Origin: a virus
Reading direction: 5' to 3' (one strand)
Virus genome (UHGV): UHGV-0281862
DNA length: 10,630 nt
The notes beneath the pieces were generated by a model, which made no database searches, had not been told where the DNA came from, and saw only the letters and a list, made by a program, of their open reading frames with translations. Shown here in pieces: positions 1 to 6,328 of this stretch; position 1 is the first letter of the stretch; every line of letters begins with the position of its first letter. Made by a program: the position numbers and the translations under genes.

Positions 1-1
1 A

Positions 2-385
2 TCAGTTGATGAGTCCGTGCGAGTTCGTTCAAACCGACCGGAATACTCTCCGGAGTTTGAGCAGGCATGGCTGGCATATCCCAAACGTGCTGGTGGCAAT
101 TCAAAATCTGCAGCCTTCAAAGCCTGGAAAGCCCGTTTGAATGAGGGGGTAAACCCCGAAACCATGCTGGAAGGTGTGAAACGCTACGCGGGCTGGGTAT
201 CTGCGATGGGTAACAGCGGCACACAATTTGTGAAACAGGCTGTCACGTTCTTTGGTCCGGATCGTCATTTCGAAGAATCCTGGGAAGTTCCTGCGGTATC
301 TGCAGCCAGACGCGAGGACCCGTACTTCAAAGCCAGTTACGACAACGTGGACTACAGCCAGATCCCGGCAGGATTCAGGGGGTGA
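2..385 (+). CDS. phage replication-associated protein, C-terminal part (5' partial; frame is open to the window start)
   Basis: Frame stays open from position 2 to stop TGA at 383-385, so the gene starts upstream of the window. Position directly upstream of nin-like genes (methyltransferase, RusA) fits the end of a lambdoid replication module. The family assignment is recalled resemblance only. Confidence 0.45.
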   Translation, partial: SVDESVRVRSNRPEYSPEFEQAWLAYPKRAGGNSKSAAFKAWKARLNEGVNPETMLEGVKRYAGWVSAMGNSGTQFVKQAVTFFGPDRHFEESWEVPAVSAARREDPYFKASYDNVDYSQIPAGFRG

Positions 386-387
386 GC

Positions 388-876
388 ATGAGTCTTTTGA
401 ATGATGTTCAGAAATTCATTGAAGCCCATCCGGGCTGTACTTCCGGAGACATTGCGGATGCTTTTGCAGGTTACTCACGGCAGCGCGTTCTGCAGTCAGC
501 AAGCAAGTTACGTCAGAGTGGGCGTGTGGCTCACCGTTGTGAAGGAGATACACGCAGACATTTCCCACGCCTGACTGAGAGAGCGCAGGAGCCGGAACCA
601 CAACCAGTTCGTGAAACCAGACCTGTGCGCAATTTCTATGTCGGCACTAACGATCCCCGGGTGATTTTGTGCCTGACCCGCCAGGCGGAAGAACTGGAGT
701 CCAGGGGCTTATACCGTCGTGCTGCAACGGTGTGGATGGCGGCATTCCGTGAAAGCCACTCCCAGCCAGAACGAAACAATTTTCTGGCGCGTCGTGAGCA
801 GTGTTTACGGAAAAGCAGCAAGCGCGCTGCATCGGGTGAAGAGTGGTATCTGTCAGGGAATTACGTGGGGGCTTAA
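388..876 (+). CDS. PerC/ANR-like small regulator (putative)
   Basis: ATG at 388 with AGGGGG 7 nt upstream; stop TAA 874-876 overlaps the next ATG (TAATG). The C-terminal motif LESRGLYRRAATVW resembles the PerC/Pch family of small regulators; the N-terminal part looks like a small helical DNA-binding domain. The ORF track starts it at GTG 382. Confidence 0.45.
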   Translation: MSLLNDVQKFIEAHPGCTSGDIADAFAGYSRQRVLQSASKLRQSGRVAHRCEGDTRRHFPRLTERAQEPEPQPVRETRPVRNFYVGTNDPRVILCLTRQAEELESRGLYRRAATVWMAAFRESHSQPERNNFLARREQCLRKSSKRAASGEEWYLSGNYVGA

Positions 877-1529
877 TGAGTAATAAATATTGCCAGGAGC
901 TGGTGGAACTGCGGAACAAACCAGCCCATGAACTGAAGGAAGTGGGTGATCAGTGGCGCACGCCGGACAACATTTTCTGGGGAATTAACACCCTGTTTGG
1001 CCCGTTTGTTCTGGATCTGTTCACTGACGGTGATAACGCCAAATGTGCTGCGTATTACACGGCGGAAGACAACGCGCTGGCGCATGACTGGTCAGAACGT
1101 CTTGCGGAGCTTAAAGGGGCTGCCTTTGGTAATCCCCCATACAGCCGCGCCAGTCAGCATGAGGGGCAATACATCACCGGCATGCGTTACATCATGAAAC
1201 ATGCCAGTGCCATGCGTGATAAGGGTGGGCGCTATGTTTTCCTGATCAAAGCTGCCACCAGCGAAGTGTGGTGGCCGGAAGATGCGGACCATATTGCTTT
1301 TATTCGCGGGCGTATTGGTTTTGAACTGCCTGCCTGGTTTATCCCGAAGGATGAGAAGCAGGTGCCGACAGGCGCTTTCTTCGCTGGTGCTATTGCTGTT
1401 TTCGATAAGACCTGGAAGGGACCGGCAATCAGCTACATCGGGCGCGATGAACTTGAGGCATGTGGTGAGGCGTTTCTGGCGCAGGTTCGCCAGCAGGCGG
1501 AAAAACTGGTCAGGGAGATGGCGGCATGA
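876..1529 (+). CDS. phage-type DNA N6-adenine methyltransferase (Dam family), orphan
   Basis: 217 aa from ATG 876 (the track's GTG 843 start would overlap the upstream gene). Contains the amino-methyltransferase catalytic motif NPPY (FGNPPYSRA); size is typical of phage Dam proteins. No adjacent restriction endonuclease gene is visible. Confidence 0.75.
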   Translation: MSNKYCQELVELRNKPAHELKEVGDQWRTPDNIFWGINTLFGPFVLDLFTDGDNAKCAAYYTAEDNALAHDWSERLAELKGAAFGNPPYSRASQHEGQYITGMRYIMKHASAMRDKGGRYVFLIKAATSEVWWPEDADHIAFIRGRIGFELPAWFIPKDEKQVPTGAFFAGAIAVFDKTWKGPAISYIGRDELEACGEAFLAQVRQQAEKLVREMAA

Positions 1530-1852
1530 CGACGTTAACTCAATGCCAGCAGCAGGTGCTGGATATGCTGATTTCTTATCAGAAAGAACGTGGCTTCCCG
1601 CCAACCAATCAGGAGGTGGCAATCATGCTGGGATACCGTTCAGTGAATGCAGCGGTGGAGCATCTTCGCGCACTGGAGAAAAAAGGTGTCATCACGATAA
1701 AGCGTGGCGTGGCCCGGGGCATCACGCTTCATACCGCGGTGAAGGACGACGACAGCGAGGCGGTCGGGATTATCCGCTCACTGCTTGCCGGTGAGGAAAA
1801 CGCCAGGCTGCGTGCAACCCACTGGTTACATCAGAGGGGCCTGAAAGTATGA
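1526..1852 (+). CDS. LexA-like N-terminal DNA-binding domain protein (no S24 peptidase domain)
   Basis: 108 aa; start overlaps the methyltransferase stop (ATGA). The segment QQVLDMLISYQKERGFPPTNQEVAIMLGYRSVNAAVEHLRALEKKGVI closely parallels the LexA winged-helix DNA-binding domain. The protein ends before any Ser/Lys protease domain. Confidence 0.7.
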   Translation: MTTLTQCQQQVLDMLISYQKERGFPPTNQEVAIMLGYRSVNAAVEHLRALEKKGVITIKRGVARGITLHTAVKDDDSEAVGIIRSLLAGEENARLRATHWLHQRGLKV

Positions 1853-2238
1853 AGCTGATCCTGCCTTTCCCGCCCAGCGTGAACACGTACTGGCGACACC
1901 CCAACAAAGGGGCGTTTGCAGGTAAGAGCCTGATAAGCGCGGCGGGGCGAAAATTTCAGAGCGCGGCGTGCGCAGCAATAGTTGAACAGTTACGTCGTCT
2001 GCCGAAACCAACGTCGGCACCTGCTTCAGTGGAGATCGTGTTGTTTCCTCCGGATAACAGGATCCGCGATCTGGACAACAATAACAAGGCGCTGTTTGAC
2101 GCCCTGACCCACGCGGGGGTGTGGGAAGACGACAGTCAGGTGAAAAGAATGCTGGTGGAGTGGGGACCGGTTATCCCGGAAGGGAAGGTCGAGATCACTA
2201 TCAGTAAGTACGAGAAACCGGCGGGTGCAGCCGCCTGA
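1849..2238 (+). CDS. rusA: RusA-family Holliday junction resolvase
   Basis: 129 aa; start overlaps the previous stop (ATGA). Carries the conserved acidic catalytic motif (RIRDLDNNNKALFDAL) and the N-terminal PFPPSVNTYW motif typical of RusA; size matches RusA (about 120 aa). Confidence 0.85.
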   Translation: MKLILPFPPSVNTYWRHPNKGAFAGKSLISAAGRKFQSAACAAIVEQLRRLPKPTSAPASVEIVLFPPDNRIRDLDNNNKALFDALTHAGVWEDDSQVKRMLVEWGPVIPEGKVEITISKYEKPAGAAA

Positions 2239-2257
2239 TTAAGAGGAGAAACGAAGT

Positions 2258-3067
2258 ATGAATAATCTGATGGTCATTGATGGTATTGAAGTTCGTCGTG
2301 ATGCTTATGGGCGTTACAGCCTGAACGATCTGCATCGCGCAGCAGTAGCATCTGGTGCAAATGCCAGAACCAAGGAGCCGGGAAAGTTTCTTTCCAGCCA
2401 ACAAACTGTTGAGCTTGTTCATGAATTGACCAACACCCAGAATTTGGGTGTTGACCCGGTGAGTGTGATTCATGGGGGAAATGAACGGGGAACGTATGTC
2501 TGCAAGGAACTGGTGTATGCCTATGCAATGTGGATCAGCCCGTCATTCCATCTGAAGGTGATCCGTACTTTCGATATGGTAACCAGCACACCGGAAAAAT
2601 TATCCGGGCAGGCTGCTGACAAGATGCAGGCTGGCGTGATCCTGCTGGACTTTATGCGCCGGGAATTAAACCTGTCTAACTCATCAGTGCTTGGAGCCTG
2701 TCAGAAACTCCAGGAGGCTGTTGGCTTACCGAATCTGGCACCGCGCTATGCCATTGATGCTCCTGCTGACGCGCCTGATGGCTCAAGCCGCCCCACGCTG
2801 TCACTGAGTGCACTGCTGAAGCAGTATGGTATCCGCCTGACAGCTAATCAGGCATATCACCAGATGGCGAAGCTGGGGATCGTTGAACAACGTGAACGAT
2901 ACAGCCGCACTGCGATTAACAACATCAAAAAATTCTGGTCGCTGACGGCGAAAGGCTGCATGTTCGGCAAGAACATCACCAGTCCCGCAAATCCGCGCGA
3001 GACGCAGCCGCATTTCTTCGAATCCCGGTTCCCTGAGCTGTTAAAGCTGCTCGATACCGTTCATTGA
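2258..3067 (+). CDS. KilA-N domain protein (N-terminal KilA-N DNA-binding domain plus uncharacterised C-terminal domain)
   Basis: Strong RBS AAGAGGAG 8 nt upstream of ATG 2258. The N-terminal roughly 100 aa (MVIDGIEVRRDAYGRYSLNDLHRAA...YVCKELVYAYAMWISPSFHLKVIRTFD) match the KilA-N/APSES-type pattern. Function of the C-terminal half is not recognised. Confidence 0.65.
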   Translation: MNNLMVIDGIEVRRDAYGRYSLNDLHRAAVASGANARTKEPGKFLSSQQTVELVHELTNTQNLGVDPVSVIHGGNERGTYVCKELVYAYAMWISPSFHLKVIRTFDMVTSTPEKLSGQAADKMQAGVILLDFMRRELNLSNSSVLGACQKLQEAVGLPNLAPRYAIDAPADAPDGSSRPTLSLSALLKQYGIRLTANQAYHQMAKLGIVEQRERYSRTAINNIKKFWSLTAKGCMFGKNITSPANPRETQPHFFESRFPELLKLLDTVH

Positions 3068-3068
3068 G

Positions 3069-4064
3069 GTGACCGTGAGAGCGCTACTGACCCCTGAAAT
3101 TGCCCCGCGTATGGGGATCGTATTGTTCAGGCCCGGTTCAGAGCTGATGCCCCTGTTTATGCAGGGGCGTGTCCTGCTGGAGCCTGAGCCGGAACGTTAT
3201 TCATCTTTCGCCAGTGGTGCCGTTCCGGCGGCATCACAACCGCTGGCGGATGATCCTGCCGTTCGGGCCGTGTTCCGCAATGAGGCAGTGATTCGTCGTG
3301 CTGGTGGAGTGGAATGTCTTGAACGCTGGTTACTTCGTGAAAAAGGTTGCCAGTGGCCTCATTCCGACTGGCACAGCGAGAACATGACCACAATGCGACA
3401 CGCTCCGGGCGCAATCCGTCTGTGCTGGCACTGCGATAACCAGCTGCGCGATCAGTTCACGGAACGGCTGGAATCAATGGCAACGGATAACTGTACCCGC
3501 TGGGTGTTGTCTGTTGTGCGTCGGGATCTCGGTTTTGATGACAGTCACGTTGTGACAATGCCGGAACTGTGCTGGTGGCTGATTCGTAATGACCTGGCGG
3601 ATGCCTTACCGGAAAGTGCAGCCCGTAAGGCACTGAGATTACCGAAGCCTGTTGTGCCGTCTGTCACCCGGGAAAGTGACCTTGTGCCTTCGGTTCCTGC
3701 CACCAGCATCATCCAGGATAAAGCGAAAAAGGTGCTGGCGCTGAAAGTGGATCCGGAGTCGCCGGAGTCTTTTATGTTACGCCCAAAACGTCGCCGCTGG
3801 GTTAATGAAAAGTACACGCGCTGGGTTAAGACACAGCCGTGTGCATGTTGTGGAAAGCCCGCTGATGATCCCCACCACCTGATAGGCCACGGTCAGTGTG
3901 GAATGGGTACAAAAGCGCATGACCTTTTTGTGTTGCCTTTGTGCAGAAAGCATCACGACGAGCTGCATGCGGATACCGTGGCATTTGAAGAGAAGTATGG
4001 CTCTCAGCTGGAGCTGATATTTCGTTTTATCGATCGTGCGCTGGCAATTGGCGTACTGGCGTAA
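3069..4064 (+). CDS. DUF968-like prophage protein (YdfU-like) with C-terminal Cys/His HNH-like zinc-finger motif
   Basis: 331-aa ORF directly upstream of the Q-like gene, the position YdfU holds in the K-12 Qin prophage. C-terminal motif CACCGKPADDPHHL...CRKHHDELH resembles an HNH/zinc-binding fold. The start is uncertain (GTG 3069, GTG 3075 or ATG 3111; none has a good RBS). Confidence 0.6.
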   Translation: MTVRALLTPEIAPRMGIVLFRPGSELMPLFMQGRVLLEPEPERYSSFASGAVPAASQPLADDPAVRAVFRNEAVIRRAGGVECLERWLLREKGCQWPHSDWHSENMTTMRHAPGAIRLCWHCDNQLRDQFTERLESMATDNCTRWVLSVVRRDLGFDDSHVVTMPELCWWLIRNDLADALPESAARKALRLPKPVVPSVTRESDLVPSVPATSIIQDKAKKVLALKVDPESPESFMLRPKRRRWVNEKYTRWVKTQPCACCGKPADDPHHLIGHGQCGMGTKAHDLFVLPLCRKHHDELHADTVAFEEKYGSQLELIFRFIDRALAIGVLA

Positions 4065-4077
4065 GTGGAGAACGAGC

Positions 4078-4830
4078 ATGAACCTTGAAGCCTTACCGAA
4101 ATATTACTCCCCGAAATCTCCAAAACTGAGCGATGACGCACCGGCGACAGGCTCTGGTGGTTTAACAATTACGGATGTGATGGCTGCGCAGGGGATGGTG
4201 CAGTCAAAAGCACCGCTTGGGTTTGCTTTATTCCTGGCAAAAGTTGGTGTTCAGGATCCTCAGTTTGCGATTGAAGGTCTGCTCAATTACGCGATGGCAC
4301 TGGATAACCCGACATTGAATAAATTGAGTGAAGAAACCCGGCTACAGATCATTCCTTACCTTGTGAATTTTGCCTTTGCTGATTATTCCAGGTCTGCGGC
4401 AAGTAAGGCTCGCTGTGAGCATTGTGCTGGTACTGGATTTCATAATGTATTGCGCGAGGTGGTGAAACACTCCAGAAGCGGGGAATCTGTTATTAAGGAA
4501 GAGTGGGTGAAGGAACTATGTCAGCATTGTCATGGTAAGGGAGAAGTCAGCACAGCATGCAGAGGGTGCAAGGGTAAAGGTATTGTCCTGGATGAAAAAA
4601 GAACCCGGCTTCATGGCACGCCTGTTTATAAGGTTTGTGGGCGTTGCAATGGAAACCGGTTTAGCCGTTTACCAACCACACTGGCGCGGCTTCATGTCCA
4701 GAAGCTGGTACCAGACCTGACGGATTATCAGTGGTACAAAGGATATGCAGATGTCATTGATAAACTGGTTACAAAGTGCTGGCAGGAAGAAGCATATGCA
4801 GAGATACAATTGAGAAAGGTGACAAGATAA
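4078..4830 (+). CDS. late-gene antitermination protein Q-like (QuuQ/YdfT-like)
   Basis: 250 aa from ATG 4078 (GGAGA 8 nt upstream; the track's 4036 start lies inside the upstream gene). Sits immediately upstream of a promoter plus lambda-like pause element plus intrinsic terminator, the arrangement expected for Q. Has several CxxC pairs (CEHCAGTG, CQHCHGKG, CRGCKGKG, CGRCNG) consistent with a zinc-binding antiterminator. Length matches the K-12 Qin protein. Confidence 0.65.
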   Translation: MNLEALPKYYSPKSPKLSDDAPATGSGGLTITDVMAAQGMVQSKAPLGFALFLAKVGVQDPQFAIEGLLNYAMALDNPTLNKLSEETRLQIIPYLVNFAFADYSRSAASKARCEHCAGTGFHNVLREVVKHSRSGESVIKEEWVKELCQHCHGKGEVSTACRGCKGKGIVLDEKRTRLHGTPVYKVCGRCNGNRFSRLPTTLARLHVQKLVPDLTDYQWYKGYADVIDKLVTKCWQEEAYAEIQLRKVTR

Positions 4831-4861
4831 ATGGTTTTCGCCGAAGATGACGACATGATGC

Positions 4862-4908
4862 TTGCATTTTTCAAAAAATATGGATAAGATTTTCCCAACG
4901 ATGGGCTT
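4862..4908 (+). promoter_or_regulatory. putative late promoter (pR'-like) with promoter-proximal pause/Q-loading element
   Basis: -35 TTGCAT (4862-4867), 17-bp spacer, -10 TAAGAT (4885-4890). Immediately downstream is CCAACGATGGG, which matches my recollection of the lambda pR' initial transcribed region (CAACGATGGG) that induces the sigma70-dependent pause where Q engages RNA polymerase. Confidence 0.45.
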
Positions 4909-4936
4909 TGTATGTCTACCGTTGATAAGATTTAAG

Positions 4937-4961
4937 AACCCGCCGATGCGCGGGTTTTTTT
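4937..4961 (+). terminator. intrinsic terminator (tR'-like), ends a short late-leader transcript
   Basis: AACCCGC-CGATGC-GCGGGTT hairpin followed by a run of seven T; lies about 50-70 nt downstream of the putative pR' start. Confidence 0.6.
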
Positions 4962-5141
4962 GTACCCAGAATCCTGTGAGCTATACGGAAAGTACACAGA
5001 AAGGAAGGTGCGACCACAATTAATAACAAAATCTTAAAAATTGCACATGGCACTATTAGTTTACTAAATATTGTGTATTTTTTGTATTGCAGGATGACCC
5101 TGTAACGAAGTTTGCGTAACAGCATTTTGCTCTACGAGTTT

Positions 5142-5170
5142 GCCAGCCTCCCCCAGTGGCTGGCTTTTTT
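5142..5170 (+). terminator. intrinsic terminator
   Basis: GCCAGCC-tcccccagt-GGCTGGC hairpin followed by TTTTTT. Confidence 0.5.
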
Positions 5171-5172
5171 AT

Positions 5173-5292
5173 GTCTGTAGCGTCAAAGCAGCAATGTCGC
5201 TGGGGCGTCGTGCAATTGGCGTTGAGCTGGAGACTGAACGTTTTGAGCAGACGGTCAGGGAAGTTCAGGATTTAGTCAGTCAGAACGGATGA
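5173..5292 (+). pseudogene. possible C-terminal remnant of a DNA methyltransferase (no start codon or N-terminus)
   Basis: Open frame translating ...VCSVKAAMSLGRRAIGVELETERFEQTVREVQDLVSQNG*, resembling the C-terminal AdoMet-binding region of beta-class methyltransferases (...A..LGRR.IGIE...). It begins right after a terminator with no upstream coding sequence. Low certainty. Confidence 0.3.
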
Positions 5293-5332
5293 TATTGCAG
5301 GATTAGTTACGTACCGTTATTATCCTGCGCCC

Positions 5333-5408
5333 GGCCCTTTAGCTCAGTGGTGAGAGCGAGCGACTCATAATCGCCAGGTCGCTGGTTCAAATCCAGCAAG
5401 GGCCACCA
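5333..5408 (+). tRNA. ileZ: tRNA-Ile2-like, anticodon CAU (Met cannot be excluded from the anticodon alone)
   Basis: 76 nt with a manually folded cloverleaf: acceptor GGCCCTT/AAGGGCC, D-arm GCTC-AGTGGTGA-GAGC, anticodon loop CTCATAA (CAT), T-arm GCTGG-TTCAAAT-CCAGC, 3' ACCA. Closely resembles E. coli ileX-type tRNA. Confidence 0.8.
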
Positions 5409-5417
5409 TATCACATA

Positions 5418-5494
5418 CCGCCATTAGCTCATCGGGATAGAGCGTCAGCCTTCGAAGCTGGCTGTGCGGGGTTCAAGTCCCCGATGGCGGTCCA
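5418..5494 (+). tRNA. argN: tRNA-Arg, anticodon UCG
   Basis: 77 nt: acceptor CCGCCAT/ATGGCGG, D-arm GCTC-ATCGGGATA-GAGC, anticodon loop CTTCGAA (TCG), T-arm CGGGG-TTCAAGT-CCCCG, discriminator T, CCA. The gene symbol follows the ileZ-argN-argO trio of lambdoid/Stx phages; which Arg gene is argN and which is argO is uncertain. Confidence 0.8.
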
Positions 5495-5507
5495 TTATCA
5501 GCATCAT

Positions 5508-5584
5508 GCGTTGTTAGCTCAGCCGGACAGAGCAATTGCCTTCTAAGCAATCGGTCACTGGTTCGAATCCAGTACAACGCGCCA
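5508..5584 (+). tRNA. argO: tRNA-Arg, anticodon UCU
   Basis: 77 nt: acceptor GCGTTGT/ACAACGC, D-arm GCTC-AGCCGGACA-GAGC, anticodon loop CTTCTAA (TCT), T-arm ACTGG-TTCGAAT-CCAGT, discriminator G, CCA. Confidence 0.8.
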
Positions 5585-5599
5585 CACTTATTTTCCCTG

Positions 5600-5623
5600 G
5601 CTCGCTTTTGCGGGCTTTTTTTT
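5600..5623 (+). terminator. intrinsic terminator after the tRNA cluster
   Basis: GCTCGC-TTTT-GCGGGC hairpin (one G-U pair) followed by a run of eight T. Confidence 0.5.
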
Positions 5624-5629
5624 AAATGT

Positions 5630-5844
5630 CTCACAATTCAGGCGGTTGACTGTTGTCTGGTTTGCGGGGAGTTTGTTAAAAGAAACTGGCATGGTGAATC
5701 CCCCTGTGCGGAGGGGCAATCAGCGAGTAGGTATATGGGATAATCGCGGATTCAGGTGCTGGTACTGAATTCACCGGGAGGCACCCGGCACCATGCAATG
5801 GCACATAGCGCCACTCTCCAGCCCCTCTCCGGAGGGGCTTTTCT
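5630..5844 (+). ncRNA. candidate structured noncoding RNA module A (promoter-like box to intrinsic terminator)
   Basis: Begins CTCACAATTCAG-N4-TTGAC. Contains a conserved hairpin GCATGGTGAATCCCCCTGTGCGGAGGGGC, the conserved block CACCGGGAGGCACCCGGCACCATG, and ends in terminator GCCCCTC-TCCG-GAGGGGC-TTTTCT (5821-5844). All blocks recur in module B at 6098-6328 with divergent spacers. No conserved ORF. Confidence 0.35.
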
Positions 5845-6097: not shown

Positions 6098-6328
6098 CTC
6101 ACAATTCAGTAAGTTGACAGTTGCCTGTCAGACTGGGCATTTGTTAAAAAAATTTCGCATGGTGAATCCCCCTGAGCGGAGGGGCGACTGGTGACGGTAT
6201 AATCTCTGATTATCAAAACGAGAATGACGCGGGTTTAGTGGCACCGGGCTGAACTCACCGGGAGGCACCCGGCACCATGTGCATGATGATACAGATACGC
6301 GGCTTTAGCCCCTCTCCGGAGGGGTTTT
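6098..6328 (+). ncRNA. candidate structured noncoding RNA module B (paralogous to module A)
   Basis: Begins CTCACAATTCAG-N4-TTGACA. Shares TTTGTTAAAA, GCATGGTGAATCCCCCTGAGCGGAGGGGC and CACCGGGAGGCACCCGGCACCATG with module A; contains a perfect TATAAT at 6198-6203; ends in terminator CCCCTC-TCCG-GAGGGG-TTTTCTT (6309-6328). Small ORFs inside differ between copies, so protein coding is unlikely. Confidence 0.35.

Follow-up and report, generated by a model that had tools for sequence, protein, structure and literature searches.

The viral DNA analysed here (UHGV virus genome UHGV-0281862; 10,630 nucleotides, hereafter the window) carries, at positions 876-2238 of its + strand, three consecutive genes of a nin-like operon belonging to a lambdoid prophage of the SfV/mEp460 type of Escherichia coli and Shigella. 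The middle gene (1526-1852) encodes a LexA-like protein of 108 amino acids, which is not a LexA and which cannot be inactivated by RecA-stimulated self-cleavage. It is flanked by the genes of an orphan N6-adenine DNA methyltransferase (876-1529; 217 amino acids from the ATG at 876) and of a RusA-family Holliday-junction resolvase (1849-2238; 129 amino acids). A preliminary description of this DNA had given the same three identities and reading frames, with ATGA overlaps at 1526-1529 and 1849-1852; the identities are right (PF05869/TIGR01712, PF01726 and PF05866, respectively) and the frames and overlaps can be read directly in the sequence. Its suggestion that the middle protein could act as a non-cleavable repressor is plausible, and a probability of roughly 0.4 is given here to the reading that it is a RecA-insensitive SOS-box repressor which would damp or reset the SOS response.

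The first 69 residues of the LexA-like protein (1526-1732) form a winged-helix DNA-binding domain. Residues 1-65 match the Pfam family PF01726 (LexA_DNA_bind) at 1e-18, the N-terminal domain of E. coli LexA (1lea) is matched in sequence with an E-value of 1e-15, and identity to E. coli LexA over residues 1-69 amounts to 51% (35 of 69 positions, ungapped). In the AlphaFold2 model (mean predicted local distance difference test score, pLDDT, of 81), helices cover residues 6-22, 28-35 and 40-52 and strands cover residues 56-58 and 66-68; by Foldseek, the model superposes on 1lea, the DNA-binding domain of LexA, and on 3jso, DNA-bound LexA, with root-mean-square deviations of 1.1-1.3 Å over 66-69 residues. 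The recognition helix of the model comprises residues 40-52 (1643-1681) and carries the motif S39-V-N41-A42-A-V44-E45-H. In LexA itself, the residues of helix III that contact DNA are Ser39, Asn41, Ala42, Glu44 and Glu45 (PMC3091678). The preliminary description had made its repressor depend on the conservation of such residues, and four of the five are kept (S39, N41, A42 and E45), the exception being the replacement of Glu44 by valine. In the wing, R64, G65 and I66 do not vary across the LexA-like family. Because S39, N41, A42 and E45 and the R64-G65-I66 wing are kept, the protein would most likely read LexA-type CTGT half-sites.

Beyond the DNA-binding domain, a low-confidence linker (residues 71-75) leads into two helices (74-87 and 93-102) that form a C-terminal helix-turn-helix hairpin (residues 74-102, 1745-1831), recognized both in the model and by its conservation in the family. 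Members as distant as 38% identity still show its consensus, LLAGEENARLRA..WL..RG, and A97 and L101 never vary. The ratio of non-synonymous to synonymous polymorphism (pN/pS), computed over 35-46 distinct alleles of each gene from related loci, is 0.054 for the methyltransferase, 0.048 for the LexA-like gene (n = 35) and 0.092 for RusA, so that all three genes are under purifying selection; within the LexA-like gene, it is 0.024 in the DNA-binding domain versus 0.10 in the tail. Since the hairpin is conserved across the family and under selection, it constitutes a functional module, and we infer that it replaces the C-terminal domain of LexA as the dimerization module, the protein presumably forming dimers through it.

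E. coli LexA possesses an S24 peptidase/dimerization domain with the catalytic residues Ser119 and Lys156, which is absent from the LexA-like protein. As the preliminary description had stated, no self-cleaving domain is present: there is no Peptidase_S24 match and the protein ends at residue 108. Its alignment with LexA stops after approximately residue 90, and the LexA dimer interface is lacking. The Ala84-Gly85 cleavage site of LexA aligns with A88-G89, a pair that is not kept in the family; cleavage in trans at this aligned Ala-Gly was considered and is ruled out by the non-conserved pair together with the missing catalytic domain. The score against the LexA equivalog model TIGR00498 (69.1 bits) falls below the cut-off of 110.95 bits. 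As protease domain, cleavage site and score cut-off are all wanting, the protein does not belong to the LexA family proper; it is a member of phrog_362 (“transcriptional repressor”, 106 positions), which it matches end to end (residues 1-108 against positions 1-106, 1e-58), and of a loose class of phage-encoded truncated LexA homologues.

The divergent members of the family (38-63% identity) were drawn from metagenomes and from Citrobacter, Klebsiella and Enterobacter. Even at overall identities of 38-50%, the LexA-type helix S-x-N-A-A-x-E-H is retained in most of the family. No member has a glutamate at residue 44, and 4 of the 11 divergent members have G, D, L or I at residue 45. Since three of these 11 have G, L or I in place of E45, LexA-type specificity is, as predicted from the helix, not universal in the family.

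SOS boxes were sought with a weight matrix of approximate scores, derived from known E. coli boxes; the matches given below are plain TACTGT-N8-ACAGTA/G sequences. The preliminary description had proposed a search for operators matching the repressor, and within the window that search finds no SOS box or other CTGT palindrome beyond chance: five CTGT-N8-ACAG sequences with at most one mismatch are found against 3.7 expected. CTGT/ACAG pairs at spacings of 0-20 nucleotides are not enriched at any spacing in the window or in the SfV genome, and neither short inverted repeats nor a palindrome of the type bound by gp6, a truncated LexA homologue of phage GIL01, provide an operator candidate beyond chance in the window. 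With no alternative CTGT-type operator in the window or in SfV, the targets would be SOS boxes located elsewhere, provided that the protein reads LexA-type sites.

SOS boxes do occur near the LexA-like gene in its relatives. In a divergent Klebsiella/Enterobacter clade, six loci (L091, L095 and L096; L097, from Klebsiella sp.; L098, from K. pneumoniae ATCC 13883; and L099, from Enterobacter sp.) have a canonical box, for example TACTGTTTATTTATACAGTA or TACTGTTTATATATACAGTG, located 140-620 nucleotides 5' of the LexA-like gene. The box heads a cluster (L091 3480-4980; L095 3460-4740; L096 440-1720; L097-L099, about 4380-5600) composed of an optional dinI gene (present in three of the six), a gene of 75-82 codons, the LexA-like gene, a gene of 67 codons, an optional RusA gene, DUF968 and the antiterminator gene Q, the latter called in L091, L095 and L096. 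The two small proteins of the cluster (75-82 and 67 amino acids) have no Pfam match. In the three loci whose upstream sequence was read, the box is preceded by a terminator hairpin and a promoter (L091 and L095) or by promoter hexamers (L096). Across the loci examined, boxes this strong have a frequency of about one per 30 kb, yet at least three independent lineages have one in the same short interval, which is thus not due to chance. In this clade, the LexA-like gene itself therefore appears to be LexA-regulated, judging from its upstream sequence.

Among close relatives, SOS boxes are found at three other places. Five loci (L060 4765-4784; L024, L063, L064 and L080) have the box TACTGTATTTATGAACAGTG between the RusA gene and the KilA-N gene, where a spacer of about 170 nucleotides with a hairpin and promoter-like hexamers replaces the 19-nucleotide gap of the window; the KilA-N gene, whose product resembles an antirepressor, looks LexA-regulated in these five. 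Nine close relatives have a box at, or just 5' of, the start of an N6_N4 methyltransferase gene of the orf48 type located downstream of Q, namely TACTGTAAAAATAAACAGTG in SfV (L092, 34170-34189) and in eight IMG/VR loci (e.g., L019, 7921); the corresponding box of L095 (6739-6758) is CACTGTAAAAATAAACAGTG. This suggests that methylases of the M.EcoGII type, described from enterobacterial phages (PMC5778455), may be under LexA control, which could explain the silence of M.EcoGII in lysogens. Finally, a perfect consensus box, TACTGTTTTTACATACAGTA, lies within the coding sequence of a cI-like repressor in eight loci (L004, L009, L017, L022, L048, L050, L062 and L074), some 3 kb 5' of the LexA-like gene; in L004, it occupies positions 1043-1062 inside a cI-like gene (helix-turn-helix plus S24 domain) at 579-1271 on the - strand.

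In the proposed mechanism, the three genes would be expressed from the early-right operon during lytic growth or induction. Once this operon is on and host LexA has been cleaved, the LexA-like protein would re-occupy SOS-box promoters independently of RecA; in the Klebsiella-type clade, it would be made from an SOS promoter after LexA cleavage. Its targets would comprise SOS genes of the host together with phage genes that are under apparent LexA control in relatives (the antirepressor-like KilA-N gene, dinI and the M.EcoGII-type methylase), and the outcome would be an SOS programme damped or reset during phage development, with LexA-controlled phage genes silenced. Phage genes plugged into the host SOS response are known from prophage dinI genes and LexA-controlled antirepressors (the Gifsy-type scheme, as cited in PMC8044961), and dinI as well as an SOS-box-headed KilA-N gene share the cluster of the LexA-like gene in relatives. 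While those systems are targets of RecA/LexA, or modulators acting on it by protein contact, the LexA-like protein would be a DNA-binding mimic of LexA; unlike its dinI-type relatives, the copy in the window has neither dinI nor an SOS box. A wider claim, tentative and rather unlikely to hold as a whole, is that a LexA mimic present in about 40% of E. coli genomes and in many Klebsiella, Enterobacter, Citrobacter and Salmonella prophages binds SOS boxes as a hairpin dimer and, upon induction of its own prophage or, in the Klebsiella-type clade, once the SOS response itself switches it on from an SOS-box promoter, shuts down the SOS regulon again along with whatever LexA controls in co-resident prophages (antirepressors, dinI and non-specific methylases), its phage thereby gaining control of the damage response and of the induction of competitors.

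Several points weigh against an SOS-box repressor. The window has no SOS box, its top weight-matrix score (8.5) being lower than the mean maximum of shuffled sequences, and SOS boxes are common in lambdoid prophages at large. The replacement of E44 by valine alters one of the LexA contact residues, and E45 is replaced in two family members (P0224 and P0165) whose genes both lie downstream of canonical SOS boxes, which makes it less likely that these two simply autoregulate through that box. The spacing of half-sites is set by the geometry of the dimer, which cannot be that of LexA. No binding, dimerization or reporter data for the LexA-like protein were found in the literature searched. Moreover, the only characterized truncated LexA homologue of a phage, GIL01 gp6, has a site of its own and activates rather than represses (PMC6182141).

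The main rival, possible if doubtful, follows from this last precedent and regards the LexA-like protein as a phage-specific transcription factor retargeted to an operator of its own. Gp6 of the Bacillus tectivirus GIL01 is, from its description, a winged-helix LexA-type protein that lacks the protease, like the protein of the window, and is encoded in an early operon of a phage with regulatory ties to host LexA; it binds GaCACAnnTGTGaC, a palindrome overlapping the -35 element of the late promoter P3, and activates this promoter (PMC6182141). The invariable absence of glutamate at residue 44 and the variability of residue 45 in 4 of 11 divergent members fit such retargeting, as does a dimer module unlike that of LexA, which may go with a site of another spacing or symmetry. 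However, neither the CTGT/ACAG pairs of the window and SfV nor, in the window, the short inverted repeats and the search for a gp6-type site yielded a conserved palindrome or repeat fit to be an operator; the recognition helix has stayed LexA-type in most of the family; and Q already supplies late transcription in these phages. The comparison with gp6 has further limits: gp6 carries an extension of only 14 residues, which forms the wing, whereas the protein of the window has an extra 35-residue helical hairpin; gp6 activates a late promoter from its own palindrome, whereas late control in the window belongs to Q and no gp6-type site is present; and GIL01 differs from the prophage of the window in host phylum and in phage type.

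An improbable alternative is that, instead of regulating particular promoters, the LexA-like protein binds DNA in the service of the recombination and replication genes that accompany it (RusA, DUF968), directing or modulating junction resolution, or is a small nucleoid-type protein. A LexA-like gene followed by RusA is the usual pairing: in each of the 81 close loci, and in 7 of the 10 divergent ones, the RusA gene lies either directly 3', with a 4-nucleotide overlap, or one gene further on, and DUF968 comes next in nearly all. The same gene order as in the window is found in relatives down to 38% identity, and in divergent loci the usual 3' neighbour is again RusA, mostly with the 4-nucleotide overlap, followed by a KilA-N or ANT gene, DUF968 and Q. 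RusA is nevertheless absent from the dinI-type loci L096, L097 and L098, where the LexA-like gene is kept, and in L087 a gene in reverse orientation intervenes. RusA is, in turn, widespread in phages devoid of the LexA-like gene, such as phage 82 and DLP12. The strong constraint on the recognition helix (pN/pS 0.024) also suggests sequence-specific binding rather than an accessory or architectural role.

It is very improbable that the LexA-like protein is tied to the methyltransferases encoded upstream, be it as their controller or as a buffer against SOS induction caused by methylation-dependent restriction. The 5' neighbour of the gene varies widely among divergent loci and can be a PerC-like gene, a replication protein gene, dinI with a small gene, or a methyltransferase gene from one of three unrelated families: PF05869 (284 or 392 amino acids), PF00145 (660-673 amino acids) or a fusion of PF00145 and PF02086. 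Such genes stand directly 5' or one gene away in five independent lineages (PF05869 in the window and in L087; PF05869 and PF00145 in L090; the PF00145-PF02086 fusion in L093; PF00145 in L095), and methylases can reportedly, according to Heitman and Model in 1987, induce SOS in E. coli. Yet the LexA-like gene is kept under selection without an adjoining methyltransferase in 21 of the 81 close loci as well as in L082-085, L088, L091 and L096-099; it lies 3' of the methylases and not 5'; no operator-like palindrome precedes the methylase gene; and the replication/nin boundary may be a mere hot spot for cassette insertion. Proteins in which a methyltransferase is fused to a LexA domain (P0022, P0092, P0098 and others) were examined as a functional link and set aside as artefacts or pseudogenes arising from frameshifts, rearrangements or internal deletions. 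Neither the methyltransferase nor RusA is required for retention of the LexA-like gene. The last alternative, that the gene is a functionless, decaying remnant of a captured lexA, draws on its resemblance to the N-terminal half of LexA and on HMMER aligning LLAGE with the VAAGE cleavage region of LexA, and is effectively refuted by the selection on the gene (pN/pS 0.048 over 35 alleles), by a length and a non-LexA tail conserved down to 38% identity, and by its presence in 41% of complete E. coli genomes with a PHROG of its own.

The value of the observation lies in a very common and intact putative LexA mimic for which relatives now provide a circumstantial link to SOS boxes and dinI. If SOS boxes are bound, many clinical E. 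coli, including carriers of Shiga toxin 2c (Stx2c) phages, would have a second, uncleavable SOS repressor during prophage induction, with a bearing on the induction of Shiga-toxin phages, on competition between prophages and on SOS-driven mutagenesis under antibiotics. If the protein instead has its own operator, phages would have retargeted the DNA-binding domain of LexA on two independent occasions, GIL01 gp6 being the first. Mechanistically, the protein would join gp6 as a case of the same kind, set apart in structure by its extra hairpin and its LexA-like recognition helix.

As sequence, the three-gene segment is ordinary and not new: it has been in GenBank since SfV and is already annotated in SfV and mEp460 and, by automatic naming, in thousands of E. 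coli genomes. Its 1363 bases are 97.4-98.1% identical at the nucleotide level to many sequenced temperate phages, among them SfV (dam, orf42 and orf43), mEp460, 1720a-02, the Stx2c-converting series and several recent coliphages. In SfV (GenBank U82619, sequenced in 2002), the order of dam, orf42 and orf43, their overlaps and the flanking genes are identical to those of the window; the genome runs from cI, cro and the replication genes through orf40 (PerC-like), dam, orf42, orf43 (RusA), orf44 (KilA-N) and orf45 (DUF968) to Q and the lysis genes, and nothing of substance differs within 876-2238. The same module is carried by the CPS-53-type prophage family of E. coli; for this family together with SfV, mEp460, 1720a-02 and the Stx2c phages, identity across the whole 1363 bases is 97.8-98.1%. 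The LexA-like gene is presumably missing from K-12, where we take CPS-53 to be truncated just upstream, and this absence may be the reason why the gene has received little study.

Of the 5426 complete E. coli genomes scanned, 2233 (41%) carry the LexA-like gene, in up to four copies each, under the label “LexA family transcriptional regulator” of the Prokaryotic Genome Annotation Pipeline (PGAP), and more than 580 IMG/VR viral contigs carry it. A profile scan of genome contigs returned mostly genuine Vibrionaceae lexA genes, together with three members of the LexA-like family. SfV orf42 is annotated as “unknown”, and later records call it LexA-like or a transcriptional repressor without experiments. 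Literature searches aimed at the LexA-like protein of enterobacterial phages found no functional study of it; it has been catalogued only. A survey of Stx phages thus lists “pham 237, LexA family transcriptional regulator, pfam01726” (PMC8136144), which is probably the LexA-like protein of the window.

The layout of the segment is that of a nin-type early-right operon: the genes lie between the replication genes and Q and are packed tightly through ATGA-type overlaps. The order is replication genes, PerC-like gene, an optional PF05869 methyltransferase gene, the LexA-like gene, RusA, KilA-N, DUF968 and Q. The ATGA at 1526-1529 joins the stop codon of the methyltransferase to the start of the LexA-like gene, which has a GGGAG Shine-Dalgarno sequence 8 nucleotides 5' of its ATG; the ATGA at 1849-1852 joins the LexA-like stop to the RusA start; and at 874-878 the TAA stop codon of the PerC-like gene and the ATG of the methyltransferase share one base in TAATG. 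The chain of overlaps runs through at least five genes (17-385, 382-876, 876-1529, 1526-1852 and 1849-2238), followed by gaps of 1-19 nucleotides as far as Q. Both ATGA junctions recur in about 80 related IMG/VR loci, the first being kept in 60 of 81 and the second in nearly all 81, and the 4-nucleotide overlap between the LexA-like gene and RusA is also found in divergent relatives. In lambdoid nin regions, overlaps of stop and start codons are the rule (PMC8022706). Being generic to such regions, and part of a chain that extends through the whole early-right operon, the overlaps are no sign that these three genes form a unit of their own.

A promoter scan found no + strand promoter within 1-2238, so that the three genes are presumably transcribed from the early promoter of the phage; the sole + strand candidate within 1-5200 lies at 2239-2266, just 5' of the KilA-N gene, and the first + strand terminator-like site of the scan is at 3493. 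Co-expression of the three genes, as put forward in the preliminary description, is thus likely, there being neither a + strand promoter in 1-2238 nor a terminator-like site before 3493. Translation is coupled through the ATGA and TAATG overlaps, which is common in nin regions. The idea of the three genes acting as a functional unit did not hold up, the methyltransferase gene being precisely absent from 21 of 81 loci and from several divergent lineages.

The methyltransferase belongs to the TIGR01712/PF05869 enzymes, scoring 255.6 bits against the TIGR01712 equivalog (“phage N-6-adenine-methyltransferase”; cut-off 97) and 156 bits against PF05869 (“Dam”; threshold 28, 1e-45), and its catalytic motif IV, of the (D/N)PPY type, is the NPPY at residues 86-89 (1131-1142). 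A sequence search of the PDB found no relative with a solved structure. Its neighbours are the PerC-like, RusA, KilA-N, DUF968 and Q genes and, as noted before, no restriction endonuclease adjoins it; the TIGR01712/PF05869 enzymes are likewise small and have no partner endonuclease. In the 21 loci that lack the gene, the PerC-like stop codon (TAA) and the LexA-like ATG overlap with nothing in between, in the form ...GGCTTAATGACG... (e.g., L004, 3996-4003), and where it is present it forms a gene-sized cassette bounded by shared TAATGA/ATGA start-stop overlaps (874-878 and 1526-1529 in the window). The methyltransferase is thus an independent, facultative orphan cassette. Its presence or absence makes a tidy case of module exchange at gene boundaries.

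Characterized phage Dam enzymes target GATC. This tetranucleotide occurs 31 times in the window against 41 expected and is not strikingly depleted. The enzyme probably protects or marks replicating phage DNA, and the earlier proposals that it would protect phage DNA or modulate expression, and that the third gene encodes a Holliday-junction resolvase, are reasonable and conventional.

The RusA-family resolvase scores 52.9 bits against PF05866 (gathering threshold 22.8; 7e-14) and matches phrog_34 at 5e-56. Its acidic motifs are DLDN at residues 74-77 (2068-2079) and DD at residues 94-95, which we take to correspond to Asp70, Asp72 and Asp91 of RusA. The protein looks intact. It is not an ortholog of the RusA of E. 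coli K-12, reaching 70.6 bits against a cut-off of 200 with the exception-level model NF007305. From its family and motifs, it is expected to resolve recombination and replication junctions.

Upstream of the segment, the PerC-like gene (382-876, +) matches PF06069 (PerC) at 4e-9 and phrog_1324 at 8e-79, and its counterparts in related phages are named “putative protein YfdN” or “PerC family transcriptional regulator”. Its product combines a winged-helix-like N-terminal part, with weak matches of the MarR/BilQ type, and a YfdN-like C-terminal segment of the PerC/ANR type. Downstream, the same operon continues on the + strand with genes identified by Pfam as encoding a KilA-N protein (2258-3067), a DUF968/HNH-like protein (3069-4064) and the antiterminator Q (4078-4830).

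The window departs from SfV on the 3' side of Q, where three tRNA genes are present and no more than a remnant is left of the orf48-type methylase. This remnant, an open reading frame at 5140-5292 (+) just upstream of the tRNA genes, corresponds to the last 35 or so residues of a beta-class N6/N4 methyltransferase of the M.EcoGII type and about 350 amino acids, with 63% identity to residues 316-350 of SfV orf48 (L092, 34162-35214), the rest of the gene being missing. The methyltransferase at 876-1529 is of a different class from this beta-class enzyme. The tRNA genes, tRNA-Met(CAT), tRNA-Arg(TCG) and tRNA-Arg(TCT), lie at 5333-5584 (+), the position at which Stx phages bear their tRNA cluster, with no stx genes after it in the window. 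Further on, in the stretch poor in open reading frames between the tRNA genes and a DUF1737 gene, the GC-rich palindrome CCTCTCCGGAGGGG occurs twice, at 5820-5839 and 6311-6324, about 490 nucleotides apart; the two copies may be duplicated terminator hairpins or part of a repeated segment.

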